Assembly: GCA_009885795.1 (NCBI GenBank)
Contig: VFKA01000010.1
Location: 4,695-68,694 of the forward strand
Direction of reading: 5' to 3'
Origin: Rhodospirillales bacterium
Lineage (GTDB): Bacteria > Pseudomonadota > Alphaproteobacteria > Dongiales > Dongiaceae
DNA: 64,000 bases
Positions 5,111-61,840 of this stretch are shown one piece after another. Made by a program: the position numbers and the translations under genes. The first letter of the stretch is position 1; every line of letters begins with the position of its first letter. The notes under the pieces are model-generated. The model was given only the letters and a program-made list of their open reading frames with translations. It did not search any database and was not told the origin of the DNA.

Positions 5111-5249
5111 CGGCCAAAGGATTTACTTGATCCAACGGGCGGTCCCTTGCATGCTACCTCCATTCCGGCCTGGGCTTACGCCATGGGCGGGTCTGCCGGT
5201 ACTGAGATTCGTGGATACGGCGACAAAACCCCGAGGGAGGAATCACTAA

Positions 5250-15469: not shown

Positions 15470-15643
15470 TTCTCCTTGAACTGGATCACCGGCGCCGTGT
15501 CGCGCACACTTTAAGCATCTCCGCCGTGGTCAAGCCCATCAGCCGGCCGCCATCGAGGGCGGATTTCGTGAAAGCCGCCGCCCCGAGCCGCGCGACATCC
15601 GCCTGGATGCGTGCAAGATCGTAATGGGTGTGCGTTTTTCCAC
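15466..15643 (-). pseudogene. mqsR: mqsR-like toxin remnant (1-nt frameshift plus internal deletion of about 40 codons)
   Basis: Reverse-strand reading: GTG-EKRTP, then after a -1 shift in a C-run, HYDLARIQADVARLGAAAFTKSALDGGRLMGLTTAEMLKV. This aligns with the E. coli MqsR N-terminal half (MEKRTPHTRLSQVKKLV..TRSALL..LGL). A third frame ends ...PVIQFKEK-TGA (compare E. coli ...IVSFKEK) and overlaps the mqsA ATG as ATGA. Confidence 0.7.
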
Positions 15644-39998: not shown

Positions 39999-40073
39999 TT
40001 GGCTCCCCGGGTTCGAATCGAACGAACGACCTAGCGGTTAACAGCCGCTTGCTCTACCGCTGAGCTACCGGGG
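39999..40073 (-). tRNA. tRNA-Asn (anticodon GTT), CCA encoded
   Basis: Hand-folded cloverleaf: TCCCCGG-TA-GCTC-AGCGGTA-GAGC-A-AGCGG-CTGTTAA-CCGCT-AGGTC-GTTCG-TTCGATT-CGAAC-CCGGGGA-G-CCA (75 nt). Confidence 0.9.
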
Positions 40074-40458
40074 AACAGTGGCCGGCAAGCCTTGGCTCCG
40101 GCGGCGACCTTATATCAGGGGCTGGGGTTGCCTGCAAATCGTTACCCCAGCGCCTGCACGATGCATTCGGCGACCGGCAGATAGTCGGAGTTGGGCAGGT
40201 GGAAGCCCCACAGAAAATCGCCCAAGGTCAAGCGCCCGTCGAGGAAGGCTTCGAGGATCATCCGGCTGACCGGGTGAAGCCGCGCCGGCAGGCAGGCGAG
40301 AACGGCGACAGGCAAGGCGTGAATCCCTTCGCGGGCCGGCCGGCAGAATATGGGGCGCGGCCCCGGCCTGTCCATGGCCGTTGACTAGGCTTGGGCATTT
40401 CCACATTCTCCGCCCTCCGCGTTCACAGGCGGGTGATTTCTCAATCGTAGGACTCTCG

Positions 40459-41202
40459 ATGAGGGCTGTTCTGCTGAGTGCCGGGCAAGGGTCGCGGCTG
40501 CTGCCGCTGACCGCGGACCGGCCGAAATGTCTCTTGGCCCTTGCCGGCCGGCCGCTCATCGAATGGCAGGTGCGCGAACTTGCCCGCGCCGGCATCGATG
40601 ACATCGCGGCCGTCGTTGGCTTTCGCGCCGAGCTGGTCGAGGAATGTCTCGCCGGTCTCGCCCGTCCGGGCCTTGCGTTGCGCGCCCACTACAATCCCTT
40701 CTACGCCGTGGCCGACAATCTGGGCAGCTGCTGGATCGCGCGCGGCGAAATGGACCGCGACTTTCTCCTGGTCAACGGCGACACGGTGTTTCGGGCGGCG
40801 ATCGCGCTGAAAGTGCTGGCCGCGCCTTCAGGCAAGCCGATTGTGGTCGCGATCGACCGAAAATCCGCCTACGACGCCGACGACATGAAGGTGCGGGTCG
40901 AGGGGACGCGGCTCCACGAAATCGGCAAGACGCTGCCCGGCGACCGCGTGAACGGCGAATCGATCGGCATGTTGCTGTTTCGCGGCGACGGACCGCGCCT
41001 CTTCCGCGACGAGGCCGAGCGCGCCTTGCGCGGCGGCGAAGGCATCAAATGGTGGTACCTCAAGGTCATCGACGCGTTGGCCCGCCGCGGTCTCGTGGAT
41101 ACGGTGTCGATCGAGGGACTACCCTGGGGCGAGGTCGATTATCGCCACGACCTCGAGCGCGCCGACGAGTTGGCCCGGCGCTGGCTCGCGGAGGACTCCT
41201 AA
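40459..41202 (+). CDS. alcohol/sugar-phosphate nucleotidyl(cytidylyl)transferase, LicC/IPCT-like
   Basis: Start MRAVLLSAGQGSRLLPLTADRPKCLL within ORF 40381..41202. Its layout resembles CTP:inositol-1-P / phosphocholine cytidylyltransferases, e.g. DDMKVRVEGTRLHEIGKTL and WGEVDYRHDLERA. Confidence 0.65.
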   Translation: MRAVLLSAGQGSRLLPLTADRPKCLLALAGRPLIEWQVRELARAGIDDIAAVVGFRAELVEECLAGLARPGLALRAHYNPFYAVADNLGSCWIARGEMDRDFLLVNGDTVFRAAIALKVLAAPSGKPIVVAIDRKSAYDADDMKVRVEGTRLHEIGKTLPGDRVNGESIGMLLFRGDGPRLFRDEAERALRGGEGIKWWYLKVIDALARRGLVDTVSIEGLPWGEVDYRHDLERADELARRWLAEDS

Positions 41203-41472: not shown

Positions 41473-42276
41473 CTACAAATCGTCGCGGCGCCGCAAGATA
41501 GCCTCGGCGAGGACCAGGTCCTCGGGCTTGTCCACGTCGATCGATGCCTCGGCGAACGGAAGCCGCACCGCGCGCACCGTGGCGCCGATGCGCCGCGACA
41601 CGACCTCCATCGCGCCGTCGAGCGTGAGGCGGCCGAGGAGGAATTGCACCAGCGGGGCAATCCCGATCGCCGCGATCAACCGCCAGGGCTGCTTGCGGAA
41701 CCGCTCGAGGTCGGTCCAGAACGCGGCGGCGCGCAAGGAAGCGGGCGTCGTCAACAAGAACAGGTTGCACCCGCTATAGCCTTCTCCCGCCAGACGGTAA
41801 AACGTGCGCGCGGCGTCGGGATAGGCCGCGCGAACGATCTCGGCCGTGGCCACCGCGACGGCCACGTCGGCGCCGCCGGCCAGGGCCTCCTTGTGGAAAT
41901 GCTCGATCATGGCCCGAGTGAGCAGCGGATGATCGCCGGTCGTCACCAGCATCGGCCATGGCGTCGAAGCCCCGGCGAGCGTTCGGCGCACGCTGTCGCT
42001 GGGCGACGTTCCCGCCGGGGCGAATTCAACCCGGCCGGCGCGGTGCAGCGCATCGAGCTCGGGCATGTCCTCCAACTCCGAGGCATCGGTCAGCGATAGA
42101 AGTATGCGCCCGATGGCCGGAGTCGCCAGCAGCGTTCGAACGACACGAACCAGCATCGGCACGCCGGCAATCGGCACCGCCACCTTGAAACGCTGGCCGA
42201 ACGCCGCCGCGACGGGGTCGCTCGCCGCGCGCTGCCCGGCCAGCACCAGGGCGGTCACTGTTCCATCGCCGGTCAT
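41473..42276 (-). CDS. nucleotidyltransferase family protein (MobA-like / NTP_transf_3 fold)
   Basis: 267 aa. N-terminal TALVLAGQRAASDP...AVPIAGVPML pattern. The ATG overlaps the stop of the upstream GNAT gene (ATGA). Confidence 0.55.
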   Translation of the reverse strand: MTGDGTVTALVLAGQRAASDPVAAAFGQRFKVAVPIAGVPMLVRVVRTLLATPAIGRILLSLTDASELEDMPELDALHRAGRVEFAPAGTSPSDSVRRTLAGASTPWPMLVTTGDHPLLTRAMIEHFHKEALAGGADVAVAVATAEIVRAAYPDAARTFYRLAGEGYSGCNLFLLTTPASLRAAAFWTDLERFRKQPWRLIAAIGIAPLVQFLLGRLTLDGAMEVVSRRIGATVRAVRLPFAEASIDVDKPEDLVLAEAILRRRDDL

Positions 42277-43436
42277 GCCAAGGCCTTTTCATAGATCCGG
42301 TAAGTCTTGTAGGCGCGCCCGCCGACGCCTTCGATGAGGCGCCTGGCCGCGACATTGTCGTCGAGGATCCAGGACAATTCGGCGCGGGCAAACCCGAGCC
42401 TGACCACGGTCCGGCGCAGATTTTCGAGAACGATGAGCCCAAGGGCGGCGCCTAGCGGCGTGCCGTGATAGCGCCGCCTTACGCCGAAAAGCGGCACGCG
42501 CGCCGTGCGCAAGCCCTTGATCTTCAGCCGCCACAGGAGCTTCACCCACCCCGTGGGCAGCAGCCGCCCGCCGAGATCGGCGATGGCTTCCGCCAGATTG
42601 GGAACCGCGACGATCATGCTGGCGGCCTCGCCATCCACTTCCGCGATCCAGACGAGATCGGGCAGCAGGACGGGCCGCAACCCTTGCGCCGCCTGGGTCA
42701 CTTCATCGGCGGTGAAGGGCACGAATCCCCAGTTTTCGGACCAGGCATCGTTGAAGATGTCGAGTATCATGGCGAGGTCGGCGTCGTAGCGCCGTTTGTC
42801 GAGGTTTCGCACGCGCACCCTGCGGCCATCGGCGGCCTTGGCGAGCCAGCGTTCGGCGAGGATCGGCTTTGCCGTCGCCATATCATAGTCGTAGGCGATG
42901 AGATCCTTGGCCTTGGCATAGCCCTGCTCGGCCAGGCGCCGGCCGGCATAAGGCGGCGCATAGGGCATCATCAACATCGGCGGCGCATCGAACCCTTCGG
43001 CCAGCAGTCCGGCTTCTTCATTGATCGAGGGATTGAACGGCCCGCGCACCCGGACCATGCCGCGCTCTTTCAACCACGTCTCGGCGGCGGCGGCGAGCGC
43101 CGCGAAAACGTCCCGATCGTCCACGGCATCGAGGAACCCGAAATATCCGATGGCGCCATGGCGCTCGAGCGACAGGCGATCGATCTGAGCGGAGATCCGG
43201 CCGACGGCCTGTCCGCCGCGCGATGCAATCCAGAACCTTGCCTCGGCATGCTGGAAATAGGCGCTGCGCGCCGGGTCGAGAAGCTTTCGCATTTCGCTCA
43301 AGAGCGGCGGCGCGTAGCCGCGGGCACCGGCGTAAAGCGTCATGGGCAAGGCAAGGAATTGCTCCAGTTGACGCGGAGAATCCACGGCCAGGATCGAGAG
43401 CGGCGCGGCCGTGGGCGCGATGCCGCCGCCGGTCAA
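42273..43436 (-). CDS. GNAT-fold N-acyltransferase, candidate bacterial ceramide synthase (bCerS-like)
   Basis: 387 aa with a C-terminal GNAT core (...ELSWILDDNVAARRLIEGVGGRAYKTYRIYEKAL). The TTG start overlaps the lptG stop (TTGA). The functional call rests on the sphingolipid gene neighbourhood. Confidence 0.5.
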   Translation of the reverse strand: MTGGGIAPTAAPLSILAVDSPRQLEQFLALPMTLYAGARGYAPPLLSEMRKLLDPARSAYFQHAEARFWIASRGGQAVGRISAQIDRLSLERHGAIGYFGFLDAVDDRDVFAALAAAAETWLKERGMVRVRGPFNPSINEEAGLLAEGFDAPPMLMMPYAPPYAGRRLAEQGYAKAKDLIAYDYDMATAKPILAERWLAKAADGRRVRVRNLDKRRYDADLAMILDIFNDAWSENWGFVPFTADEVTQAAQGLRPVLLPDLVWIAEVDGEAASMIVAVPNLAEAIADLGGRLLPTGWVKLLWRLKIKGLRTARVPLFGVRRRYHGTPLGAALGLIVLENLRRTVVRLGFARAELSWILDDNVAARRLIEGVGGRAYKTYRIYEKALA

Positions 43437-44515
43437 TAGCCCTCCATCCGCAGCAGCGCCGCGCCGCCGACACTGCCGAACAAGATCGCCGGGCTCCAGG
43501 CCGCGAGGACCGGTGGCAAGATACCGGCCTCGCCCAGCGCCAATGAAAAACCGTCGGTGACGAAAAAGAGGAATCCGAGGCCCAGGCCGATGGCGATCCC
43601 GGTGGCGAGGCCGCCTTGGCGGCGCATGGCCTGGGCGACGGGTGCCGCAAGCAGCAGCATCAGCAGGGCCGACGCCGGAATGGCCAAGCGCTTGTGGAAC
43701 GCCGTTTCATAGAAATAGGGCGCGAAAGCGCCCACGTCGGGGGTCGAGACGTACCGATAGAGCTCGGCCAGCGAGAGGCTGGCCGGCGTCGCCGCGCGCT
43801 CGGAAAAATGGCCGGGGGCAAGGTGGGTCTTCCATTCCTGCTGTGCCGTGCGCCGATACGTACCGCCCGATCCGGTCGATGGGATGAAGACCTCGACGCC
43901 CAGCAGGGTCCAGCTGCCTTCACGGTAGCGGGCGCCGTTGGCGGTGGTGCGGGCGGCCAGGCGCCCGGCCTCGTCGCGGGAGAAGATGGTGACACCGGAC
44001 AACTGGCGGCCATTGTCGAACACCCCGGCGACGCGGACCATGACCCGGCCGTCGTGAATCCAGATCGCCTGATCCACGTCGGGCGCGGCATAGCCCTGAT
44101 CCCCGATCCCCGAATCCCAGGCCATCAGGGCACGGACGGAAGCGGGCGCGACCTGGTCGCTGGCAAAGAGGTGCAGCAGCGATACGCCGAGGACGACCGG
44201 CAGGAAAGCCAGCAGCAGCCGGTAATAGGGCAGTCCCGCGGCCTTGAGGGCCAGCACTTCGTTATGGAGAGCAAGACGGCTGAGCGCGATCAGGCACGCC
44301 ATCAGCACCGAAAACGGCATCATGAGAATGACGACTTCGGGCAAACGCAGCACCGTGTACCGGGCAAGGGCGGTCACGGCATTGCCATGACGCGCCATGA
44401 TATCGGGCGCGTTGTTGAGCAGATCGAACAATTGCAGCAGCGATACGAAGCCGAGCAGCGAGAACACCAGCTGCACGAGAAACAAACGGGTCGCATAGCG
44501 AAAAAGGGTGGCCAT
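43433..44515 (-). CDS. lptG: LPS export ABC transporter permease LptG (YjgP/YjgQ family)
   Basis: Start MATLFRYATRLFLVQLVFSLLGF within ORF 43433..44674. The ATG overlaps the lptF stop (TGATG). Confidence 0.8.
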   Translation of the reverse strand: MATLFRYATRLFLVQLVFSLLGFVSLLQLFDLLNNAPDIMARHGNAVTALARYTVLRLPEVVILMMPFSVLMACLIALSRLALHNEVLALKAAGLPYYRLLLAFLPVVLGVSLLHLFASDQVAPASVRALMAWDSGIGDQGYAAPDVDQAIWIHDGRVMVRVAGVFDNGRQLSGVTIFSRDEAGRLAARTTANGARYREGSWTLLGVEVFIPSTGSGGTYRRTAQQEWKTHLAPGHFSERAATPASLSLAELYRYVSTPDVGAFAPYFYETAFHKRLAIPASALLMLLLAAPVAQAMRRQGGLATGIAIGLGLGFLFFVTDGFSLALGEAGILPPVLAAWSPAILFGSVGGAALLRMEGY

Positions 44516-45798
44516 CAAGCGCCCGTCAGGGATCGCGCGAGGCCGCGGCGGCCCCGTTCCACGGCATCGAGCGTCGATTCGATCGCGACCGTGAACACAT
44601 TGTATCCGGGCCGGCTGTTCGACGAATGGAAAGCCCAGACGCTGAACCACGAAAAGCAGAGGAACGGCACCCACATGGTCAGCCAGGGGCTGAGATTCGT
44701 TGCTTGGCCGAGGTTATTCCCAAGCTGCAGCACGTGGTGGTAGAGTACGATGATCACGATGGCGAGCCCGAAGGCGATGGTGCGGGATGCGCGCCGGGAC
44801 GCGGTCCCGAGCGGGATGGCCAAGCATGGCAAGAACAGCAGGGAAAGTATGCGCACCACGCGTTCGTGCAGCTCGCGCTTCAATCCGTCGGTGCTCAGGC
44901 CCGGCGGCGGGTCGCTCAGCGAATTCCAAAGCTCGACCAAGGTAAATTCGTTGTAGCCGCGGCCACGTTGGCGAAACGGCGTCGGGACCAACGAGAAATC
45001 GAGCGGCAGGTTGAGGTTGTCGAAGGTGACGACCGTCGAATTGCGGCTGGCGACGTCGTTTTCGATCCGCAACCCGGACTCCAGGCTCAAGATCAGCCGT
45101 TCATTGTCCGCCGAGCGGTACACGTTGCCCTTCCTCGCCGTGGTGGTGATCGAGCCGCCGTCCGGCTTTTGCTCGTGGATGAAGATTCCGGCAAGGCTGC
45201 GGCCGCCGTCGCCGATGTCGTCCACCATGATGGTCATGTTGCCGAAGCCGCTGAAGAAGGCGCCGCGCTCGAGCGCGATGTCCCAGGCGGTGTTGGTGAC
45301 GATGTGCACCAGCGCGCGGTAGGCGTATCGCGTCAAGGGTTGCATGAAGCCGACGATGACGGTGCTGCCGATCACCAGAAGCATCGCCACCACCATCAAC
45401 GGCATCAGAAGACGCCCGTAGCCGACGCCCACCGCGTGAATGGCGTCGAACTCGTTGTCGCTGCTGAGCCGCGCGGTCGCCAACAGGATGCCGATGAAAA
45501 AGGCGGCCGGCAGCGCCAGCCCCAGATATTGCGGAACAAGGTAGGCGAGCATGCGCAGCAGCAAGTAAAAAGGCCCGCCTTCGTTGACGACGATGTCGAG
45601 AAGACGAACGGTCCGTTCCAGCATCAACGCCAGCAGGGCCACGCCGAGCGAAGCGAAGAGCGGCCACAACGTCTTGCCGATGATGTACCGGTCCAGCAGC
45701 CGCATCGGAACATGCAGGGCGAGCCGGCCGAGGGCGAGGGACATCGGCCCGCTCGCGTGTTCTTCCGCGCGCCCCGGCGGTTTGCGTGGACCGGTCAT
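44515..45798 (-). CDS. lptF: LPS export ABC transporter permease LptF (YjgP/YjgQ family)
   Basis: Contains MRLLDRYIIGKTLWPLFASLGV. The ATG at 45798 overlaps the metallophosphoesterase stop as ATGA. Alternative starts are 45744 and 45705. Confidence 0.8.
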   Translation of the reverse strand: MTGPRKPPGRAEEHASGPMSLALGRLALHVPMRLLDRYIIGKTLWPLFASLGVALLALMLERTVRLLDIVVNEGGPFYLLLRMLAYLVPQYLGLALPAAFFIGILLATARLSSDNEFDAIHAVGVGYGRLLMPLMVVAMLLVIGSTVIVGFMQPLTRYAYRALVHIVTNTAWDIALERGAFFSGFGNMTIMVDDIGDGGRSLAGIFIHEQKPDGGSITTTARKGNVYRSADNERLILSLESGLRIENDVASRNSTVVTFDNLNLPLDFSLVPTPFRQRGRGYNEFTLVELWNSLSDPPPGLSTDGLKRELHERVVRILSLLFLPCLAIPLGTASRRASRTIAFGLAIVIIVLYHHVLQLGNNLGQATNLSPWLTMWVPFLCFSWFSVWAFHSSNSRPGYNVFTVAIESTLDAVERGRRGLARSLTGA

Positions 45799-46739
45799 GC
45801 GGCCAGGCGGCGGGCGCCGGGAACGGCGAGCTCGAATCCGCCTTCGCGTTCGAAACGGTCGAGCGACGGCGCCACGCCCCTGACCTCGACCGCGAGGCGC
45901 CAGCCATTGGGCTCGCGCGCGACCCGATAGAGATGGTAGCGGGCATGGTCCTTGCCGCGATGCGGCCGCGCCGAGGCGGACGGTACGCCAATCGCCGGCG
46001 CGGTGCCGAAGGGCGTGTCGAGCTTGCCTAGCACCGACAGGTGGGTATGCCCGAATATCACCAGTTCCGCCCCGGCCCGCGCCACGACCTGGCGGAACGC
46101 TTGCGAATCGAGAAGCCGCTTGCGCCGGCTCGCGGACCCCGCCAGGGGCGGATGATGAATGAGCACGACGCGAAAAAGGTCGCGGGTGCCCAGCCGGGCG
46201 AGAGTGTCCTCCAGCGCCTGCAACTGCGCCGGTCCGACGCGCCCGGCCGCCATGTGCAAGGGCATGGGCCGAGCCGTCGATACGCCGACGAGGGCAAGGG
46301 GACCTCGCAGCCGGACGAAGGGGAATCCCTCGGGGCCTGGGACCGGGCGCTCGGCGCCGTCGAGCGTGCTACCCAAGCCGGTCATGTTGCCGCTCCAAAG
46401 CCCGACGGACCGATCCCAGGCAACCGGAACGTAGGCATCGTGGTTGCCCGGAACGACCGTCACGGTCCCGGGCTCGCCCAGCGATGCCAGCCACCTTGCC
46501 GCACGCTCGAACTCCTCGGGCAGGGATATATTGGTAATGTCGCCGGTGATGGCGATGTGGTCCGGCCGCTGGCGTGCCAGATCCTCCACCAGTGCCGGCA
46601 GAACCGGGCCTTCATGCACCGGGCGTCGGCGGACCATCCAGGAGATCAGCCCGAGACAACGCTTGTTCAAGAGATCGCCGAGGGCCGGCCAGCCCATATC
46701 GCCGAGATGCGGGTCGGAAAGATGCGCGAGAGTGAACAT
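45795..46739 (-). CDS. metallophosphoesterase (calcineurin-like)
   Basis: 314 aa with motifs LSDPHLG, ITGDITN, VPGNHD, and GHTH in FGHTHLS. Confidence 0.8.
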   Translation of the reverse strand: MFTLAHLSDPHLGDMGWPALGDLLNKRCLGLISWMVRRRPVHEGPVLPALVEDLARQRPDHIAITGDITNISLPEEFERAARWLASLGEPGTVTVVPGNHDAYVPVAWDRSVGLWSGNMTGLGSTLDGAERPVPGPEGFPFVRLRGPLALVGVSTARPMPLHMAAGRVGPAQLQALEDTLARLGTRDLFRVVLIHHPPLAGSASRRKRLLDSQAFRQVVARAGAELVIFGHTHLSVLGKLDTPFGTAPAIGVPSASARPHRGKDHARYHLYRVAREPNGWRLAVEVRGVAPSLDRFEREGGFELAVPGARRLAA

Positions 46740-46784
46740 TTCGCTTTATACAATGCCCGAGGCGATATATGCGGTCGTTCTTGT

Positions 46785-46855
46785 CTTGGACATGGCCGAA
46801 GGTCAAGGTTTCTTTGATTCTACCGGCTTCTAGAGGGTTACTTGGACATGGCCGA
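46785..46855 (+). promoter_or_regulatory. perfect 15-bp direct repeat duplicating the start-codon context; the upstream copy opens a 13-codon uORF
   Basis: cttggacATGgccga at 46785..46799 and 46841..46855. The first ATG (46792) gives MAEGQGFFDSTGF-TAG (46792..46833). The second ATG (46848) starts the CDP-alcohol transferase gene. Confidence 0.6.
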
Positions 46856-48026
46856 CGCACGCGACAAGGACGGCGGGCCAAGCGCCTGGATCGTGGGAAA
46901 GTGCGACGTCGCCCTTTGGGGACTGGACGCAACCTTACGCTGGCGGCGCTGTCTTGGCCGCGCGGGTGTCACTGCCTGCCAAGTGGAACCGGCGCCGATC
47001 GAGGCCGCCGGTCGGGTTCTGCTCGTGCGCGCCGATGCCGTGGCGCAAGAGAGCCTGGTCCAGGCCCTGGTCGCGTCCCCCGATACCGTCCTCGCGCTTT
47101 CCGGGGCAGCGGATTCAAGCTGCGTGCCGCTGGCGGCTCATGTGCCGGCCGATCTCGCGGGCTTCGTCGCCGGCGCGATGCGGCGCGGTCGGTGCGAGAC
47201 CGCCGAACTCGCCGGGCGCGGCCTCGCGGTAAAAGATCCCGATGAGCTCGGATCGTCCTATCACCATGCGCTGCGAAAGCGCGCCGCGCCGTTCGCGATG
47301 CTGGTGACGGCGGCTTCGGCGCCGGACATCGAACGGCGCATGTTCGCCGCCTCGTATAAGGGTGTCACCGATCTGGTCACGAAATGGCTGTGGCCGGTTC
47401 CGGCGCGCTGGGTGACGGGTTGGGCGGCGCGGCGCGGCATTTCCGCCAACGCGGTCACCTGGCTGAGCCTCGTCTTCGTCGTCTTGGCCTGGTGGTTGTT
47501 CGCCGCCGGCGAATTCGTTCTCGGCCTCGCCGCGGCTTGGGCGATGACGTTTCTCGACACCGTCGACGGCAAGCTGGCGCGCGTCACCCTGACTTCCAGC
47601 AAGTTCGGCGACGTCTTCGACCATGGCATCGATCTGTTGCATCCGCCGTTCTGGTACGTGGCCTGGTGGCAGGGGCTTGCCGACGGAAGCCCGGCGCTGG
47701 CGGCGGCGATGTGGATTGTCGTTGCCGGCTACATCCTCGGCCGGGTCATCGAAGGTTGGTTCATCTGGCGGTTCAAGTTCGAGAGTCACGCCTGGCGGCC
47801 GATCGATTCGCGATTCAGGCTGATCACGGCGCGGCGCAACCCGAACCTGATCCTGTTGACGGTCGCCGCGATCCTCGGCCAACCGGCATTCGGCTTGGTC
47901 GCGGTTGCGGTGTGGACGGTTCTGTCGCTGATATTTCACCTCGTCCGGTCGGGGCAGGCCGAGGCGGCGAACCGGCGCGGCTCGCCGCCGCGTTCGTGGC
48001 TTACGGAAGCAGCGCCGCCGGCATGA
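46848..48026 (+). CDS. CDP-alcohol phosphatidyltransferase family protein with soluble N-terminal domain of about 170 aa
   Basis: Family motif DTVDGKLARVTLTSSKFGDVFDHGID, i.e. D-x2-DG-x2-AR-x8-G-x3-D-x3-D, in a polytopic C-terminal half. No family recognised for the N-terminal domain. Confidence 0.8.
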   Translation: MADARDKDGGPSAWIVGKCDVALWGLDATLRWRRCLGRAGVTACQVEPAPIEAAGRVLLVRADAVAQESLVQALVASPDTVLALSGAADSSCVPLAAHVPADLAGFVAGAMRRGRCETAELAGRGLAVKDPDELGSSYHHALRKRAAPFAMLVTAASAPDIERRMFAASYKGVTDLVTKWLWPVPARWVTGWAARRGISANAVTWLSLVFVVLAWWLFAAGEFVLGLAAAWAMTFLDTVDGKLARVTLTSSKFGDVFDHGIDLLHPPFWYVAWWQGLADGSPALAAAMWIVVAGYILGRVIEGWFIWRFKFESHAWRPIDSRFRLITARRNPNLILLTVAAILGQPAFGLVAVAVWTVLSLIFHLVRSGQAEAANRRGSPPRSWLTEAAPPA

Positions 48027-48988
48027 TGCGCGTCGGTGTCATCTCGAATCCGCGCAGCCGGCGCAACCGCGATGGCATGGACAAGATCCGCGCCGTGCTT
48101 GCCCGCCATGGCGACATCGCGCATGCGGAATTGAGCCGCATGGCCGAGTTGCCGGCGGCGGTTCGCCGGTTCGCCGATTCGGGCGTGTCGCTGGTGGTCG
48201 TGAACGGCGGCGATGGAACCGTGCATGCCGTCCTCAGCGAAATCTTGAACGGCGTGCTTCTCGCCGATCCGCCCCGGCTCGCGGCCTTGCCATCGGGCAT
48301 GACCAATCTGATCGCCGTCGATGTCGGCCTCGCCGGGCGGCCGGACCTGTCGCTTGCGAACCTTTTGTCGCGGGTCCGCGACGGCGGCGAACTGACGGTC
48401 CGGCGCCGGCCGGTCTTGTCGTTGACGCCGGCGCCGGGCGCGCGGGCCAGTCATGGCATGTTCTTCGGCACCGGCGCCTTCTATCGCGCCGTCATGGCCA
48501 GCCGCCGGCGCATCCATCCGACCGGTGTCCGGCACGATCTCGCCACCGCCCTCTCCGTCGGATTGTTCATCGCCGGAATGTTGCTGCGTCGTTCGTCGCC
48601 CGGTTCGCCTTATCGCGGCGACGGCATGACGATCCGCCGGGATGGTGGGGTCGCCCGAACCGGCACTCATCTCGGAATGGTCGCGACGACCTTGGAGCGG
48701 CTTTCCATGGGCCTCGACCCGTTCTGGGACGGGACCGAGGGCCCGATGCGCTACACCCTGCTGCCGTTTCCGCCCCATCGCTTCGGCTCGGCCATGGTGC
48801 CGATTCTTCTCGGGCGGCCGCTCCCGTGGATGGCGGGGAAGGGCTATGAGAGCGGGCGGGCGGCCGAGCTCGCCTTTACGATCGACTGCCCGCTGGTGCT
48901 GGATGGCGAGGTGTACGCGGCGCCGACGGGCGCGCCGGCGGTGCTTCGCGCCGACCGCGAGGTCGAGTTCGTGACCATTGATGGATGA
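48023..48988 (+). CDS. lipid kinase, DAGK-catalytic/LCB5 family (candidate ceramide kinase)
   Basis: Start MMRVGVISNPRSRRN (ATGA overlap with the upstream stop). Has the VVVNGGDGTVHAV motif. Confidence 0.7.
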   Translation: MMRVGVISNPRSRRNRDGMDKIRAVLARHGDIAHAELSRMAELPAAVRRFADSGVSLVVVNGGDGTVHAVLSEILNGVLLADPPRLAALPSGMTNLIAVDVGLAGRPDLSLANLLSRVRDGGELTVRRRPVLSLTPAPGARASHGMFFGTGAFYRAVMASRRRIHPTGVRHDLATALSVGLFIAGMLLRRSSPGSPYRGDGMTIRRDGGVARTGTHLGMVATTLERLSMGLDPFWDGTEGPMRYTLLPFPPHRFGSAMVPILLGRPLPWMAGKGYESGRAAELAFTIDCPLVLDGEVYAAPTGAPAVLRADREVEFVTIDG

Positions 48989-49907
48989 GATATCGGTGAC
49001 CGACGCCCGGCAAGACATAGACCGCCTGATCGCCGCGGAGATCGGCTTGTCCGTCGCGGCATCGGTGCGCGCGGCGGCCGACGACATTCGCGCCCGGTTG
49101 GGCGGACACGCGCGAGCGATCCTTTTTTATGGATCGTGCTTGCGCCGGGGCGGCGATCCGGCGGAGGACGATGATTCGGTTCTCGATTTCTATGTGCTGG
49201 TCGAGGGCTATGCCGACCTCTATGACAACCGCCTCCTGGCGCTCGCCAACCTGCTCCTGCCGCCCAACGTCTTCTACGCGGAGGTGCCATGGCAGGGGCG
49301 GAGCCTGCGCGTCAAATACGCCATCGTTTCCGAAGCCTCGTTCCGGCGCGGCTGCACGAGCCGTAGCTTGCATTCGTTGCTGTGGGGCAGGTTCGCGCAA
49401 CCCGTGCGCCTGGTGTACGCGCAAGACGAGCCGGCGCGGCGCAATGTCACCGATGCGCTCGGCGACGCGGTCGTGACGCTTCTAGCGGCCGCGCTGCCTC
49501 TGGTGCCGGCGGATGGTTCGGCCTTGGAACCATGGACTCGCGCGCTCGAGGAAAGTTATCGCACGGAGTTGCGGACGGAACGCGCCGGCCGGGCCGGGGA
49601 CATCGTCGCCGCGGATGGCGCGCGCTACGCGGCCTTGACGCCGCTGGCGATGACGCTCGCGCGTCCCGTGTCGCCGGCGCGCGCCCGCGCGCTCTGGGCC
49701 TTGCGGCGCGCGATCGGCAAGCCGATGAGCGTGGCGCGGCTGGCGAAGGGCGTCTTCACCTTCACCGGGGGCCAGAGCTACATTCTGTGGAAGCTTCATC
49801 GCCATTCGGGCGTGACGCTGGCGCCCACACCCTGGCAGCAGCGCCACCCGCTGCTGTCGGCGCCGGTCTTGGCCTGGCGCCTCTATCGCCGCGGCGCCTT
49901 TCGCTGA
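48981..49907 (+). CDS. Tam41/Mmp37-like nucleotidyltransferase (mitochondrial-type phosphatidate cytidylyltransferase family)
   Basis: About 308 aa. ILFYGSCLRRG...LDFYVLVEGY, NVFYAEVPWQGRSLRVKYAIVSEASF, LLWGRFAQPV and ESYRTELR align block by block with yeast Tam41 as I recall it (FGYGSGVF, GVYFNPF..VKYGVVS, YLAGRLQKPV, LSYAGDIR). Overlaps the kinase stop by 8 nt. Confidence 0.6.
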   Translation: MDEISVTDARQDIDRLIAAEIGLSVAASVRAAADDIRARLGGHARAILFYGSCLRRGGDPAEDDDSVLDFYVLVEGYADLYDNRLLALANLLLPPNVFYAEVPWQGRSLRVKYAIVSEASFRRGCTSRSLHSLLWGRFAQPVRLVYAQDEPARRNVTDALGDAVVTLLAAALPLVPADGSALEPWTRALEESYRTELRTERAGRAGDIVAADGARYAALTPLAMTLARPVSPARARALWALRRAIGKPMSVARLAKGVFTFTGGQSYILWKLHRHSGVTLAPTPWQQRHPLLSAPVLAWRLYRRGAFR

Positions 49908-49979
49908 CCCTTCTCCAGATCCGTGGCGGTCATTCTAGGTGTCATTGACACATATGCCGTTGACGCATATATTGCGGCC

Positions 49980-50318
49980 ATGTCGATCGTGACCGTTGTC
50001 GAAACGCTGGAATTTCAGCGCCGGGCCGACGAACTCATGAGCGATGAAGAACGCCAGGAAATCATCGACTTCATCGCCCGCAACCCTGGTGCCGGCGTTT
50101 CCATCGAAAGCGGCGTGCGCAAGGTGCGTTTTGCCCGGAAAGGCGGCGGAAAGAGTGGCGGCTACCGGGTCGTCCATTTCCATGGCGACGACGCGAGGCC
50201 AATCTTCCTGCTGACGGTGTTCGCGAAGAACGATAAATCGGCCCTGACCCGATCGGAGACGGACGCGATCAGAAAGCTAGGCAAGGTGCTGTCGGATACC
50301 TACGGGAGACCAAGATGA
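49980..50318 (+). CDS. RelE/ParE-superfamily toxin (Gp49/HigB-like)
   Basis: Start MSIVTVVETLEF within ORF 49923..50318. Contains ...GGYRVVHFHGDDARPIFLLTVFAKNDKSALT. ATGA overlap with the antitoxin. Confidence 0.75.
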   Translation: MSIVTVVETLEFQRRADELMSDEERQEIIDFIARNPGAGVSIESGVRKVRFARKGGGKSGGYRVVHFHGDDARPIFLLTVFAKNDKSALTRSETDAIRKLGKVLSDTYGRPR

Positions 50319-50608
50319 GCAAGGCATTCAAGAGCATCGAGAGAGGCCTCAAGGAGGCCATCGCCCATGCCAAGGGCACGCGGCTCGGCATCATCCACGA
50401 GATCGATGTACCCAAGCCGGACGTGTCGGCGATCCGGGCGAAGACCGGATTATCGCAGGCGGTCTTTGCCAAGAGCATCGGCGTCAAGAAGGGCACGGTC
50501 TTGAACTGGGAGCATCGGCGCCGATCCCCGGACGGCCCGGCCCGCGTCCTGCTCGCCCTGATCGACAAGGATCCGAGCATCGTCCAGCGCACCCTCGCCC
50601 GGCGCTAA
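50315..50608 (+). CDS. XRE-HTH antitoxin (HigA/NadS-like)
   Basis: 97 aa with GLSQAVFAKSIGVKKGTVLNWEHRRRSPDGPARVLLALI. Confidence 0.75.
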   Translation: MSKAFKSIERGLKEAIAHAKGTRLGIIHEIDVPKPDVSAIRAKTGLSQAVFAKSIGVKKGTVLNWEHRRRSPDGPARVLLALIDKDPSIVQRTLARR

Positions 50609-50638: not shown

Positions 50639-51856
50639 TCAGGCGACCGCAGCTTCGGAGGGCGCTTCGAGCAGGCCGGTCGCATAAGCGACGCCGGTGA
50701 GCGCCCGGATGATGGTCTCCAGTTGTTCGCGGTCATGCGCGGCGCAGACGCTGCAACGCAGCAGCGCCGTGCCACTGGGTGTCGCGGGCGGCAGCGCCAG
50801 GTTCATGTAGACGCCGGCATCGAGCAGCGCCTTCCACACCGCCACCCCCATCTCGGCGCTCGGCAGATGCACGGCGACGACCGGGCCCTTCCGCGGTCCG
50901 AGATCGAAGCCTTGCCGCTGCAACCCGTCATAGAGAATGCCGACGTTCGACCACAGCCGCGCGCGCAACTCCGGGTGCGCGACCATGACCTTAAGCGCGG
51001 CCCGAACCGAGGCGACGATGGAAGGCGGCAGCGATGCCGTGAACATGTAAGGGCGGCTCACAACTCGCATGATGTCGAAGTCGGGATGATCGGACACGCA
51101 ATAGCCGCCGATGGCCCCAAGGCTCTTGCTGAAGGTACCGGTGATAAAATCGACGTCGGCTTCGAGGCCCTCGGCCTCCGCGAGGCCGCGCCCGGTGCGC
51201 CCGAGCACGCCCATCGAATGCGCTTCGTCGACCAGGAGATAGGCGCCGTGACGGCGTTTCACCTCGACGAATTCGGCCAGCGGCGCCTGATCGCCCAGCA
51301 TGCTGTAGATGCCTTCGGTGACGATGATCTTGTTGCCGGGCTTGCCGGCCAGCCGCGCCAGGCGCTTGTCGAGATCGGCGGCGTCGTTGTGCCGGAAACG
51401 AATCACGGTGGCCTGCCCCAGGCGCGACGCGTCGTAGATGCTGGCGTGGCAATCCGCGTCCAGCATCAGAAAATCGTCCGGTCCGGCGATCGCCGATATG
51501 ACGCCTAGATTGGCCTGATAGCCGGTCGTGAACACCATGCAGTGCTTGCGGCCGTAAAACGCCGCCAGTTCGTCTTCGAGCAATTGGTGCCCGTCGTAAC
51601 TGCCGTTGGCGATGCGCGAGCCGGTGGTCCCGGTGCCGAACGATTCCGCCGCTTCCGCGGCCGCGTCCACGCAGGCGGCGTCGAAGGTCAGGCCGAGATA
51701 GTTGTTGGTGCCGGCGAGGATGGTGTAGCAGCCATTGACGATGGCCTCGGTCGGCGACAGCACCTGATCCATCTTGACCGCGAATGGCTCGGCGCCGCTC
51801 GCGCGAAACCGCGCGCAGACATCCTTCTGTACCTCGTAGCGATCGAACAGGCCCAT
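50639..51856 (-). CDS. spt: serine palmitoyltransferase (alpha-oxoamine synthase family)
   Basis: Start MGLFDRYEV (or GTG at 51865) within ORF 50639..52171. PLP-lysine motif GTFSKSLGAIGG, plus LGTNNYLGL-type, DEAHSMG and PPATP...LLRCS motifs. It resembles Sphingomonas SPT end to end from memory and has a dedicated ACP immediately upstream. Confidence 0.8.
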   Translation of the reverse strand: MGLFDRYEVQKDVCARFRASGAEPFAVKMDQVLSPTEAIVNGCYTILAGTNNYLGLTFDAACVDAAAEAAESFGTGTTGSRIANGSYDGHQLLEDELAAFYGRKHCMVFTTGYQANLGVISAIAGPDDFLMLDADCHASIYDASRLGQATVIRFRHNDAADLDKRLARLAGKPGNKIIVTEGIYSMLGDQAPLAEFVEVKRRHGAYLLVDEAHSMGVLGRTGRGLAEAEGLEADVDFITGTFSKSLGAIGGYCVSDHPDFDIMRVVSRPYMFTASLPPSIVASVRAALKVMVAHPELRARLWSNVGILYDGLQRQGFDLGPRKGPVVAVHLPSAEMGVAVWKALLDAGVYMNLALPPATPSGTALLRCSVCAAHDREQLETIIRALTGVAYATGLLEAPSEAAVA

Positions 51857-51861
51857 ATGCG

Positions 51862-52122
51862 TCACGCCCCCCCTTTGATCCGCGCCACCGTGGCCGCCAA
51901 ATCGGCAACCGAGTGGATCTCCGGCACCAGATTGAGCGGGATCGAAATATCGAACCGCTCCTCCAGCTTCATCATCAAATCCATCACCGCCAGGGAATCC
52001 AGATTGAGATCCCTGGCGATATCCGTCTCTCCGGTAATGGATCCGCCCGCCTGGCGGAACGGCTCGAGAAGTTCGATGACTTGGCCGATAAGCGCTTGTG
52101 CTTCTTCCCGCTGGCCACTCAT
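51862..52122 (-). CDS. acyl carrier protein (sphingolipid-dedicated type)
   Basis: Start MSGQREEAQ within ORF 51862..52212. Phosphopantetheine site DLNLDSLAVMDL. Confidence 0.8.
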   Translation of the reverse strand: MSGQREEAQALIGQVIELLEPFRQAGGSITGETDIARDLNLDSLAVMDLMMKLEERFDISIPLNLVPEIHSVADLAATVARIKGGA

Positions 52123-52241
52123 CCCCATCTCCGCCGCAACGCCACCACGCGGCTGAACCCGCGTTTCCCACCGAATCATAGCCCGGCGCCCGGCCCCCAC
52201 TACCAAGCGCACTTATCCGGAATCGCAGGGCAAAGCTGAAA

Positions 52242-52266
52242 TAACAAATTGTTACAGATTGTTACA
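52242..52266 (-). promoter_or_regulatory. AT-rich palindrome/tandem repeat between cerR-like gene and acp
   Basis: TAACAA-A-TTGTTA perfect palindrome (52242..52254) overlapping tandem ATTGTTACA x2 (52248..52256, 52258..52266). It is a local AT island in a GC-rich genome. Confidence 0.4.
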
Positions 52267-52304
52267 AATAGGTTCTAACCCAGCCGGCCGGCGCCTTCCC
52301 GGCC

Positions 52305-53252
52305 TCAAAGCCATCCGGCGGCGCGATACCAGGCGACGGTCTCGCGGAATCCCTCGGCGACCCCGATTCGCGCCCACCAGCCCAGCTCCGCCAGCAACCG
52401 GTCCTCGCGGCAAACCCAATCCGGGTGGCGGACTTCCCTCAGCTTGCCCGGCGTCAGGGTCGGCGTCCGGCCCGCCAGCCGCGCCAGCGCCACCGCCAGC
52501 CCGGAGGCCAGAACCTGGACCGGCATTGCCACCGGCACGGAAATCGGACTCCTACCGACGGACTGGGCGCCGAGCGCCACCAGTTCGGACCAGCCATATC
52601 CGCCACGCCGCCCATCGTCGATCTCGATGATGGCGCCGCCGGGGTTGAGCCGTTCGAGGACGGTCACCACGGCCGCCGCCAGATCGGCCACATGAAGGAA
52701 CGACAGCCGGGCGCGCTTTGGCGCCGGCAACAAGACCCAGCCATTCCCGATGCAGCGAAAGAACAGCAGCGTCTCGCGGTCGCCGGGGCCGTAAACCACC
52801 GGTGGCCGCAGCGCGGTCCAGCGCAACCGCCCGCCCTGTGCCGTCAAGGCCTCCTCCGCCGCGCTCTTGCTTGCGGCGTAGGGGGAAATCCCGGGCTCGC
52901 GCGCGGCCAGCGAGGACATGTGGAGAAAGTGAGCCGACGGCGCTTGGCGAACCGTCGCGGCGGCAAGGGCGGCCGTTCCTTCGGCATTGACCCGGCGGAA
53001 GTCGGCGCGCCGCCGGGCCTTGACCAGGCCGGCGCAATGCACGACGGCGTCGGCGCCGATCACGAGTTCTTCCAGGCTGGCGGGATCGCCGAGGTCGCCG
53101 ATCGCCACGTCAAGCGTGAGCCCGGCAAAAAGCGGTCCGGCCGGGATGCGCCGGCTAAGGATGCGAACCCGCCACCCCGCCGCCGCCAGGGCCGCGACCA
53201 CGTGACCGCCGATGAAACCGGTGCCGCCGGTGACGGCGACGAGGCGCGGCAT
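52305..53252 (-). CDS. NAD(P)-dependent epimerase/dehydratase-family reductase (CerR-like candidate)
   Basis: 315 aa with VTGGTGFIGGHV Rossmann motif. Starts 3 nt after the stop of the upstream ligase. The functional call rests on synteny with spt/acp. Confidence 0.65.
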   Translation of the reverse strand: MPRLVAVTGGTGFIGGHVVAALAAAGWRVRILSRRIPAGPLFAGLTLDVAIGDLGDPASLEELVIGADAVVHCAGLVKARRRADFRRVNAEGTAALAAATVRQAPSAHFLHMSSLAAREPGISPYAASKSAAEEALTAQGGRLRWTALRPPVVYGPGDRETLLFFRCIGNGWVLLPAPKRARLSFLHVADLAAAVVTVLERLNPGGAIIEIDDGRRGGYGWSELVALGAQSVGRSPISVPVAMPVQVLASGLAVALARLAGRTPTLTPGKLREVRHPDWVCREDRLLAELGWWARIGVAEGFRETVAWYRAAGWL

Positions 53253-53255
53253 GGA

Positions 53256-55025: not shown

Positions 55026-55122
55026 GATCGGCGATGCGGAAAGACGGGGGCTCGGATCGGCCGGCGCCGGTGCCCTCTTAGCAAATTCCATTGCCGCGCC
55101 ACAAGCGGATTGGCCGATTGAA

Positions 55123-55192
55123 GTGCCTCATGGTGAGGAGTCGGCGAAGCCGGCGTCCTCATCCCGAGCTTGTCCAGGGACGAACCATGAGA
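55123..55192. repeat. Family A/B intergenic repeat
   Basis: gtgcctcatggtgaggag...gtcctcatcccgagcttgtccagggacgaaccatgag. Confidence 0.7.
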
Positions 55193-55206
55193 CCGCGGTC
55201 GCGGAT

Positions 55207-57107: not shown

Positions 57108-57233
57108 CTCTTTCGAGACGCGCCCTTGGCAGGGCGCTCCTCAAGATGGGGAAAGCCAACGACAAGCCTCATGGCGAGGAGGCTGCGGCAGCTTCCGTCC
57201 TCATCCCGAGCTTGTCGAGGGACGCACCATGAA
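57108..57233. repeat. Family A/B intergenic repeat (long composite copy)
   Basis: ctctttcgagacgcgcccttggcagggcgctcctcaag ... cctcatggcgaggaggctgcggcagcttccgtcctcatcccgagcttgtcgagggacgcaccatgaag. Confidence 0.75.
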
Positions 57234-57328
57234 GCCGCCAGTCGGCAAATGCGATAGCCCTGGGCCCGCGCTTGTCTGGCCCGTACGGCTGGTGTATCAA
57301 GCGCGGCCGTCGCCAAGGAACCACATTC

Positions 57329-61698: not shown

Positions 61699-61840
61699 GA
61701 AGGAACTATCGCGAATTTATAGCCTTGCCACCCTGGACAAGGGAAGCGCGGCGTCGCCTTGCCGGCAATGAAGACGGCTTGAATTATCGTCTCGTTATGG
61801 GTTCGATAGCGGACCGCTTTCGAAGGAAAGGGACCGGCCC

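Follow-up and report, generated by a model that had tools for sequence, protein, structure and literature searches.

Five co-directional open reading frames lie on the minus strand of the window (i.e., the whole 64,000-nucleotide stretch of DNA analysed in this work), with the coordinates and in the order given by a preliminary description: metallophosphoesterase, lptF, lptG, GNAT acyltransferase and nucleotidyltransferase (Table 1). As also described there, this block is divergent from a head-group triad on the plus strand, beyond which lies a ceramide core operon; an inserted RelE/HTH toxin-antitoxin pair separates the cpgC-like gene from spt. The intergenic region between the two divergent operons presumably carries the promoters of both; it shows no match to the sigma-70 consensus, and a 15-nt exact direct repeat occurs once within it and a second time at 46841-46855. 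Inside the block, no promoter-like or terminator-like signals were found above shuffle expectation.

Table 1. Features of the block and its flanking operons (positions within the window)
Feature	Position	Strand	Remarks
Second nucleotidyltransferase	40381-41202	+	CC_1152 counterpart; convergent with the block; Pfam NTP_transf_3 and NTP_transferase
MobA/CofC-like nucleotidyltransferase	41473-42276	-	CC_1153 counterpart; last gene of the block; ATG overlaps bCerS stop (ATGA)
GNAT / bCerS	42273-43436	-	Tandem-GNAT acyltransferase; TTG start overlaps lptG stop (TTGA); CCNA_01212 / CC_1154 counterpart
LptG2-type permease	43433-44515	-	360 aa; ATG shares one base with lptF stop codon (TGATG)
LptF2-type permease	44515-45798	-	Maximal ORF, 427 aa
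Metallophosphoesterase	45795-46739	-	Calcineurin-like; first gene of the block; CC_1158 / CCNA_01216 counterpart
Divergent intergenic region	46740-46841		102 bp between phosphoesterase and head-group operons
Head-group operon	46842-49907	+	Three genes; divergent from the block
CDP-alcohol phosphatidyltransferase	46842-48026	+	CC_1159/CpgA-like; Pfam CDP-OH_P_transf
DAGK-family ceramide kinase	48023-48988	+	CC_1160/CpgB-like; DAGK_cat called on identical Logan contig
CC_1161/CpgC-like protein	48978-49907	+	
Ceramide core operon	50639-56973	-	Five genes
Spt	50639-51856	-	Pfam Aminotran_1_2; 62% identical to Caulobacter Spt
ACP	51862-52122	-	Pfam PP-binding
CerR reductase	52305-53252	-	Pfam Epimerase
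Acyl-ACP synthetase	53256-55091	-	Pfam AMP-binding
MsbA-like ABC half-transporter	55207-56973	-	Pfam ABC_membrane and ABC_tran; CC_1166-like putative flippase

The block had been taken for a single operon joined by four start/stop overlaps and, as regards gene order and single-operon architecture, this reading of the sequence is sound. All four strings are present on the minus strand (ATGA at 45795-45798, TGATG at 44513-44517, TTGA at 43433-43436 and ATGA at 42273-42276), and the lptF/lptG, lptG/GNAT and GNAT/nucleotidyltransferase junctions are credible as start/stop overlaps. The lptG ATG at 44515 puts the beginning of the Pfam domain at residue 6, no start codon other than the TTG precedes the conserved N-terminal block of the GNAT (GGAGG lies 5 nt upstream of this TTG), and the nucleotidyltransferase ATG is 9 codons ahead of the domain. 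Among related loci, a start with a 4-nt overlap is possible at lptF/lptG in 36 of 43, and for the GNAT/nucleotidyltransferase junction the figure is 41 of 56; these two couplings are thus conserved rather than due to chance. The phosphoesterase/lptF overlap, however, depends on an uncertain start codon and is doubtful, since in the nearest homologues the maximal ORF starts at the position of Met32 in the window protein. Alignment of the N-termini with these homologues puts MRLLDRY at Met32 (ATG at 45705, giving 396 aa), a start that homology favours and that would leave ~89 nt between phosphoesterase and lptF; the NCBI version of LptF starts at Met19 (45744; 409 aa), and the gene call on Logan contigs at Met1. 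Other four-base overlaps in the window are found at 48023-48026 and 29992-29995.

The proposal that the GNAT protein is a ceramide synthase of the Caulobacter type (bCerS) is borne out by its 47-49% full-length identity to the proteins in the same position in the Caulobacter genus, with collinear reciprocal hits. It belongs to a family of 7567 members and matches Pfam Acetyltransf_1 (26.3 bits), and its AlphaFold model (pLDDT 86) has tandem-GNAT proteins as top PDB fold matches. The host organism is closest to MAGs of Rhodospirillaceae (63% bCerS identity) and Dongiaceae (59%). The nucleotidyltransferase of the block (Pfam NTP_transf_3, 46.8 bits) immediately follows bCerS in 56 of the 74 loci with enough flank. 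The second nucleotidyltransferase is 45-55% identical to its same-position Caulobacter counterpart and, with a domain beginning at residue 27-29, likely starts at the ATG at 40459. The phosphoesterase (Pfam Metallophos, 52 bits) is 40-43% identical, with a reciprocal hit, to the same-position gene in two Caulobacter loci (L061 and L069), and the nearest solved sequence is that of the glycerophosphodiesterase GpdQ, a weak match.

Both permeases resemble the canonical LptB2FG(C) components (E. coli LptF/LptG; PDB 6MIT, 6MHU, 5L75) in their full-length PF03739 match (215 bits for LptF, 240 for LptG), in the adjacency of F and then G genes with overlapping stop/start codons, and in the coupling-helix glutamate, which is kept in LptF (E116, equivalent to E. 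coli LptF E84) and in LptG (Glu86, equivalent to E. coli LptG E88). The hydropathy of LptG shows 3+3 transmembrane segments around a ~160-aa periplasmic domain, like that of E. coli LptG, and the transmembrane topology of the pair agrees with that of E. coli LptF/G. On the canonical profiles, LptG exceeds the NCBIfam equivalog cut-off (TIGR04408; 260.6 against 240) and LptF is 11 bits short of its own (TIGR04407; 218.6 against 230), both outscoring the Caulobacter, Roseomonas and Phenylobacterium F2/G2 proteins; canonical S. meliloti reaches 290 and 315 bits (the latter for LptG). In neighbour-joining trees with canonical references from five species (S. meliloti, Shinella, Methylobacterium, E. 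coli and P. aeruginosa), LptF nevertheless clusters with Caulobacter, Phenylobacterium and Roseomonas LptF2, apart from canonical LptF, in 200/200 bootstraps, and LptG joins the LptG2 clade in 155/200 (78%). Identity is 18-25% to canonical alphaproteobacterial LptF/G (the same range for S. meliloti) and 22-23% to E. coli, versus 32-35% to Caulobacter LptF2/G2. The genomic context also differs, sphingolipid genes taking the place of pepA, holC or lptD (the canonical alphaproteobacterial arrangement is pepA<>lptF-lptG-lptD). By sequence, then, the pair is a member of an LptF2/LptG2 paralogue clade travelling with sphingolipid loci, and not an LPS permease moonlighting; a separate canonical lptFG is assumed in this genome. 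The preliminary description had suggested that the pair also handles anionic sphingolipids, which is essentially right about the cargo, but the pair is a dedicated paralogue.

The linkage recurs when loci are compared. LptF/G are found within 10 kb in 50 of 80 bCerS loci from many phyla, and the linkage is kept across Alpha-, Beta- and Gammaproteobacteria; all five genes are present in 32 of the 80 loci, with the exact order of the window in 19 and the alternative GNAT-NT-MPE-LptF-LptG in 11. Reciprocal tblastn between the window and Caulobacter sp. Root343 (L069) gives one-to-one, collinear matches across 13 genes, including the head-group triad (33-45% identity). Judging from this synteny, the region is a gene-for-gene orthologue of the Caulobacter crescentus CC_1152-CC_1166 sphingolipid locus, itself part of CC_1152-CC_1168 (CCNA_01212-CCNA_01226), where LptG2 is CC_1155/CCNA_01213 and LptF2 is CC_1156/CCNA_01214. 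Content, order and orientation match from the CC_1152 counterpart to the CC_1166-like ABC protein. Both loci have a divergent head-group operon and lack an LptB gene (no LptB-type gene was found anywhere in the window), and in Root343 there are also 4-nt overlaps at lptF2/lptG2 and lptG2/bcerS. The differences are an amino-acid identity of 32-62%, an uncultured alphaproteobacterium as the host of the window, the RelE/HTH pair as a feature of the window, the lack in it of a CC_1157-type gene between phosphoesterase and lptF2 (a gap of ~1.1-1.2 kb in Caulobacter), and no LptC2 or CC_1167 counterparts among the annotated ORFs past the ABC gene. The megaplasmid locus of Roseomonas mucosa (NZ_CP034903.1) likewise carries phosphoesterase, LptF, LptG, bCerS-type and nucleotidyltransferase genes in this order, running divergently from its head-group triad, its pair being named 'LptF/LptG family permease' by PGAP; that plasmid-borne locus, however, is interleaved with DUF2141, HIT and sterol desaturase genes, and its pair is 34-35% identical to that of the window.

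The region very probably serves transport and the late steps of synthesis within a complete bacterial sphingolipid locus, with LptF2/LptG2 as the sphingolipid-dedicated paralogue. By analogy with Caulobacter, ceramide would be made by Spt, ACP, the acyl-ACP synthetase, CerR and bCerS. Its conversion to an anionic ceramide (di)phosphoglycerate would need the three head-group proteins (kinase, CpgC and CDP-alcohol transferase) as well as the phosphoesterase and both nucleotidyltransferases. This lipid would probably be flipped by the MsbA-like ABC protein, and LptF2/LptG2, docked on LptB, the only such ATPase of the cell (the presumed partner of this pair, as in the canonical system), would draw it, rather than lipid A, out of the inner membrane and pass it on towards the outer one. 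The five genes of the block are probably co-transcribed, lptF2-lptG2 and bcerS-nucleotidyltransferase being ancient translationally coupled pairs, and the lptG2/bcerS overlap a further addition in this lineage.

For function, the main evidence was obtained in a different genus, whose proteins are 32-35% identical, and some of it is in a preprint. In Caulobacter, CC_1152, CC_1153 and CC_1158 act in the conversion of CPG to CPG2, the first two being each required for CPG2 formation, whilst in the CC_1158 mutant CPG builds up and less CPG2 is formed (PMC11324152). LptF2/G2 can be deleted only if spt or cpgB is absent, and LptF2 and LptG2 co-purify as a pair and also with LptB (bioRxiv 10.64898/2026.04.12.717747, a 2026 preprint). 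The linkage noted in the preliminary description was already drawn, with CC_1155/1156 named LptG2/LptF2, in 2024 (PLoS Pathogens, PMC11324152), where a dedicated pair moving anionic sphingolipids was proposed, and the genetics and pull-downs of 2026 tested and supported this; the locus is real but ordinary, i.e., a copy of the Caulobacter-type sphingolipid locus.

The pair could instead be the only LptF/LptG of the organism, extracting both LPS and sphingolipid. The profile scores of LptG and LptF, higher than those of other locus-embedded pairs, would fit this, the comparison made here covers the window rather than the whole genome, and there is a precedent in Sphingomonas wittichii, where a single pair, reportedly the sole one, is near the sphingolipid genes, the remainder of which are scattered over about six regions. 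S. wittichii, however, has no LPS, whereas the present organism would be an LPS maker. The clade shared with Caulobacter second-copy pairs, the low identity to canonical alphaproteobacterial proteins and the far higher scores of those of S. meliloti make this unlikely, and Caulobacter, the characterised organism with the same layout, retains both pairs (PMC11324152; bioRxiv 10.64898/2026.04.12.717747).

It is very improbable that an ordinary LPS exporter was placed in a sphingolipid operon only to keep the expression of LPS export and of sphingolipid synthesis at a constant ratio, the second suggestion of the preliminary description. The tight packing of the operon, in which stop codons overlap start codons, speaks for it, but the phylogeny sets the pair apart from canonical LptF/G, the same embedded pair recurs in those 50 bCerS loci, and in Caulobacter it is dispensable without sphingolipid synthesis, which an LPS exporter would not be. 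That genome compaction brought together five unrelated genes that share no function is scarcely credible: overlaps of four bases are frequent in high-GC genomes, and this window has two others, but the comparative data (linkage kept across three proteobacterial classes, and conserved lptF/lptG and bcerS/nucleotidyltransferase overlaps) refute it, and every Caulobacter counterpart mutant has a sphingolipid phenotype.

The five genes lie within a complete sphingolipid locus: the lptG-like gene abuts that of the GNAT protein, a putative bCerS (bacterial ceramide synthase), and the genes for the serine palmitoyltransferase Spt, acyl carrier protein (ACP), CerR, an acyl-ACP synthetase and the head group are all found at most 12 kb away. 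The other 40 kb of the window hold ordinary metabolism and transport genes, and a scan of the rest of the window turned up neither another PF03739 gene nor any for LptB or LPS. Bar one uncertain start codon, the block is real as observed. The families that the preliminary description had assigned to its five genes are borne out by Pfam and NCBIfam matches, and the four strings in which it had seen start/stop overlaps are all present exactly where it had placed them. Three of these overlaps are credible as such. The ATG of lptG lets the Pfam domain begin at residue 6, the TTG of the GNAT gene is the sole start codon 5′ of the N-terminal block conserved among 24 aligned homologues and is preceded, five bases 5′ of it, by GGAGG, and the ATG of the nucleotidyltransferase gene stands nine codons ahead of its domain. 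The fourth overlap, between the phosphoesterase gene and lptF, appears doubtful from the alignments, as the start of lptF is uncertain. In the closest homologues, maximal LptF ORFs start at M-[KRT]-x-x-D-R-Y, which corresponds to Met32 of the window protein (ATG at 45705), and the alignment of Caulobacter LptF2 to this protein likewise starts only at Met32; with this start, there would therefore be a gap of ~89 nt between the two genes. The NCBI version starts lptF at Met19 (409 aa), and Met1 is the start called on the short Logan metagenome contigs (SRR8670872, SRR8670873 and SRR8670883) that carry exact protein matches. At this point the DNA of the Logan contigs and that of the variant contig L090 are identical to the window, so that the different start is a mere choice of the gene caller. 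Scanning the inside of the block for promoters and terminators gave nothing above shuffle expectation, and the same scan plus Rfam over the block and its surroundings gave nothing beyond chance except a tRNA gene at 40003-40074 (minus strand), just outside the locus and adjoining the CC_1152-like gene.

Features of the sphingolipid locus in the window
Feature	Position	Strand	Remarks
Second nucleotidyltransferase	40381-41202		convergent with the block
MobA-like nucleotidyltransferase	41473-42276	-	267 aa; NTP_transf_3
GNAT protein	42273-43436	-	387 aa, TTG start; Acetyltransf_1
LptG-like permease	43433-44515	-	360 aa, ATG at 44515; PF03739
LptF-like permease	44515-45798	-	427 aa from first ATG; PF03739
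Calcineurin-like metallophosphoesterase	45795-46739	-	314 aa; Metallophos domain
CDP-alcohol phosphatidyltransferase, DAGK-family kinase and third gene	46842-49907		divergent from the block across 102 bp
Spt, acyl carrier protein, epimerase-family reductase, AMP-binding acyl-ACP synthetase and MsbA-like ABC half-transporter	50639-56973	-	

The GNAT protein, whose 387 aa fall in the range of about 385-400 aa expected of a bCerS, carries Acetyltransf_1 (26.3 bits, above the cut-off of 20.7), and its AlphaFold model has a tandem-GNAT fold (pLDDT 86.1, pTM 0.85), whose best PDB matches are the tandem-GNAT structures 2wpw and 7q3a and the mycothiol synthase MshD (E 4e-15 and weaker); a PDB search with the bCerS sequence found no meaningful relative. 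The family is large, with 7567 matches at E<=1e-5, the nearest relative being 63% identical. The window belongs to an uncultured alphaproteobacterium whose closest kin are MAGs of Rhodospirillaceae and Dongiaceae. With Caulobacter congeners standing in for C. crescentus NA1000, residues 4-386 of the protein match those of three Caulobacter species with 47-49% identity, its counterpart is syntenic in both species for which flanking sequence was available, and reciprocal tblastn against the Caulobacter counterpart gives 47.6% identity (E 3e-110). The earlier suggestion that this GNAT is of the ceramide-synthase type and related to CCNA_01212 is thereby upheld. Judging from its sequence, its modelled fold and its linkage to spt, acp, cerR and an acyl-ACP synthetase gene, the window protein has everything by which a bCerS can be recognized computationally and is a strong candidate for one. 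CCNA_01212 is bCerS itself, an enzyme working at the cytoplasmic face of the inner membrane, and the biochemistry comes from this Caulobacter enzyme. Homologues of bCerS in NCBI MAG records are often labelled ‘dATP pyrophosphohydrolase’ (e.g., P0033, P0043, P0060, P0081 and P0109), which looks like a propagated misannotation.

Both permeases are intact members of their family, with PF03739 matched over positions 1-351 of 353 in LptF (E=1.6e-63) and 1-353 of 353 in LptG (E=3.6e-71), and with 3+3 TM segments flanking a periplasmic domain of ~160 residues; their genes are adjacent, F then G, and NCBIfam ranks its LptF model top for the former and its LptG model top for the latter. We compared them with canonical pairs from E. 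coli K-12, from a record of P. aeruginosa and from three chromosomes that PLSDB lists as plasmids, those of S. meliloti (UIJ96124/UIJ96123, in the classic pepA<>lptF-lptG-lptD context), Shinella and Methylobacterium. Over 352 aligned columns, the identity of window LptF is 35% with Caulobacter LptF2, against 18% with its S. meliloti and 22% with its E. coli namesake; for window LptG the figures are 32% with Caulobacter LptG2, 25% with S. meliloti LptG and 23% with E. coli LptG. In a neighbour-joining tree (a distance method; 122 domains, 352 columns, five canonical species only), window LptF groups with the embedded LptF of Caulobacter, Phenylobacterium and Roseomonas to the exclusion of all canonical sequences in 200/200 bootstraps, and window LptG falls in the LptG2 clade, canonical sequences again excluded, in 155/200. 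The canonical context, with pepA/holC divergent upstream and often lptD downstream as in S. meliloti and E. coli, is absent at the window pair, which is flanked by the metallophosphoesterase and bCerS.

Against TIGR04407, the LptF equivalog, the window protein scores 218.6 bits and misses the cut-off of 230 (S. meliloti LptF 289.8; the F2 proteins of Caulobacter, Roseomonas and Phenylobacterium 185-205), and against TIGR04408, the LptG equivalog, it scores 260.6 bits and passes the cut-off of 240 (S. meliloti LptG 315.3; other G2 proteins 206-218), which places the pair above the other embedded ones (185-218) and below the canonical one (290, 315). Because window LptG exceeds it, the LptG cut-off cannot by itself separate the paralogues in this lineage, and NCBIfam scores alone were rejected as a discriminator. 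Were the embedded pair the only LptF/LptG of the cell in this lineage, extracting both lipid A and the anionic sphingolipid, a transporter with two cargoes, instead of a dedicated paralogue, would explain these unusually canonical-like scores and the joining of the pair to the ceramide synthase in one coupled operon; set beside the bootstrap values and the identities, this seems quite improbable to us. The preliminary description was right in substance with the first of its two possibilities, that the pair handles anionic sphingolipids; what it missed is that, by tree and identity, the pair seems to be a dedicated LptF2/LptG2 paralogue. LptF E116 aligns with E. coli LptF E84, and LptG E86 with LptG E88, the coupling-helix glutamates that engage LptB. 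A dedicated LptB-like ATPase gene was sought in the window and none was found. With these glutamates, and with no dedicated ATPase gene in the locus, the pair would be expected to dock on LptB.

All five genes of the block have named Caulobacter counterparts with a phenotype, and the whole arrangement is already known from the literature. The C. crescentus locus was drawn as CC_1152-CC_1168 by Olea-Ozuna and colleagues in 2024 (PMC11324152), who named CC_1155/CC_1156 LptG2/LptF2 and proposed that they move phosphosphingolipids to the outer membrane. The same work shows that the conversion of ceramide phosphoglycerate to ceramide diphosphoglycerate (CPG2) requires CC_1152 and CC_1153, with a contribution of CC_1158, an orthologue of which was found in none of six comparison species (PMC11324152). 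Uchendu, Isom and Klein (2026) report that lptF2, lptG2 and lptC2 tolerate deletion only in the absence of spt or ceramide kinase, that LptF2 and LptG2 co-purify and both bind the single LptB, and that many sphingolipid loci of alpha- and gammaproteobacteria contain such pairs (bioRxiv 10.64898/2026.04.12.717747). The loci of Caulobacter endophyticus, Caulobacter sp. Root343 and Phenylobacterium share the order and orientation of the window, head-group and spt operons included, and a Roseomonas mucosa megaplasmid has the same order plus a few additional genes. Reciprocal tblastn between Root343 and the window is collinear and one-to-one, the phosphoesterase and the nucleotidyltransferase matching their counterparts in this locus (L069) with 39.7% and 34.6% identity. 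These two genes, of CC_1158 and CC_1153 type, have the expected domains and are syntenic beside lptF2 and bcerS, respectively; a PDB sequence search with the phosphoesterase returned only a weak match to GpdQ.

The spread of the arrangement was surveyed with one genome per species, by tblastn of fifteen window proteins against the loci of the best 80 of at least 598 bCerS matches, which span Alpha-, Beta- and Gammaproteobacteria, Desulfobacterota and Nitrospirota. The resulting fractions are approximate and probably low, as they come from the best 80 of at least 598 matches and many contigs end early. LptF/G lies at most 10 kb from the GNAT in 50 of these 80 loci, and so does Spt in 50 of the 80. 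The synteny from GNAT through lptG and lptF to the metallophosphoesterase, which the preliminary description had proposed to look for in other genomes, does recur: among the best 80 of at least 598, the full five-gene set is found in 32 loci, in the exact order of the window in 19 and as GNAT-nucleotidyltransferase-phosphoesterase-LptF-LptG in 11, and the nucleotidyltransferase directly follows the GNAT on its 3′ side in 56 of the 74 with enough flank. In this same sample (best 80 of at least 598), a start giving a 4-nt overlap is available at the lptF/lptG junction in 36/43 loci and at GNAT/nucleotidyltransferase in 41/56, at only 4/9 abutting lptG/GNAT junctions and at only 1/8 close phosphoesterase/lptF junctions. 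The window, therefore, has two anciently coupled pairs packed more closely into a single run; in its nearest relatives, an additional 0.5-3.5 kb of sequence stands at the lptG/GNAT and phosphoesterase/lptF junctions.

Other features of the surveyed loci are worth recording. A CC_1158-type metallophosphoesterase is found in 49 of the 80 (best 80 of at least 598), 30 of these being upstream of lptF2 on the same strand, and the gene thus appears commoner in bCerS loci than reported (PMC11324152). Three Caulobacterales MAGs, independent of one another, have LptF2 fused to LptG2: one ORF between spt and bCerS (L071 3383-5677, L060 6752-9049 and L067 7401-9992) encodes 764-863 aa and comprises both LptF/G domains in full, and these three loci are devoid of the phosphoesterase and head-group genes. 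We know of no description of a single-chain LptFG. A Dongia sp. MAG (L022) has two tandem LptF2-type genes (4422-5612 and 5557-6834) followed by one LptG2. The LptF/G pairs of the Desulfobacterota and Nitrospirota bCerS loci (L019, L027, L042, L051, L057, L064, L073, L077, L078 and L081) fall outside the LptF2/G2 clade, with ~25-35% identity to gammaproteobacterial canonical LptFG and ~17-27% to F2/G2, and may be the sole pair of those organisms or an independent recruitment.

If orthology is a guide to function, Spt would condense serine with acyl-ACP and bCerS would add the second chain at the cytoplasmic face, after which the MsbA-like protein probably flips the lipid and CerR would reduce it. 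The kinase, CpgC, the CDP-alcohol transferase, the two nucleotidyltransferases and the phosphoesterase would then assemble the anionic head group, and the product, bound for the outer membrane, would be extracted from the inner membrane by LptB2-LptF2-LptG2. With the exporter genes set between those of the late head-group enzymes and of the ceramide synthase, and with stop and start codons that overlap, export would be matched to synthesis, which fits with Caulobacter, where the anionic sphingolipid is lethal without its exporter. Only recently has an answer been proposed to the question of how sphingolipids reach the Gram-negative outer membrane; this answer, a duplicated LptFG pair using the LptB of the LPS pathway, is based on one model organism. 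To this the window contributes a second case, independent and distant (32-35% identity), in which the layout is the same and the packing tighter, and the survey extends the linkage well past Caulobacter, with conserved lptF2-lptG2 and bcerS-nucleotidyltransferase overlaps and a CC_1158-type phosphoesterase common in the locus. This is useful as supporting comparative data and is not a discovery; among its by-products, how widely the linkage extends, which overlaps are conserved, how frequent the phosphoesterase is and the fused LptF2-LptG2 of some Caulobacterales could possibly deserve a footnote.

Several smaller observations concern the surroundings of the block. The divergent intergenic region holds an exact 15-nt direct repeat, CTTGGACATGGCCGA, at 46785-46799 and 46841-46855, 56 bp apart, the second copy overlying the start codon (TTG) of the CDP-alcohol transferase gene. 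The repeat lacks conservation in the five related loci checked, and could be an operator specific to this lineage or a small duplication. The cpgC-like gene and spt are contiguous in Caulobacter; in the window they are separated by an inserted pair (49923-50608) made of a RelE-family toxin gene (49923-50318) and an overlapping HTH antitoxin ORF (50237-50608). Past the MsbA-like gene come a class I methyltransferase gene (57233-58606, plus strand), two GDSL lipase/acylhydrolase genes (58404-59615, plus; 59631-60764, minus) and a sulfotransferase gene (60775-61716, minus), which may be lipid-modifying accessories of the locus replacing Caulobacter CC_1167/CC_1168. An MqsA-type antitoxin gene is found at 15062-15529 on the minus strand.
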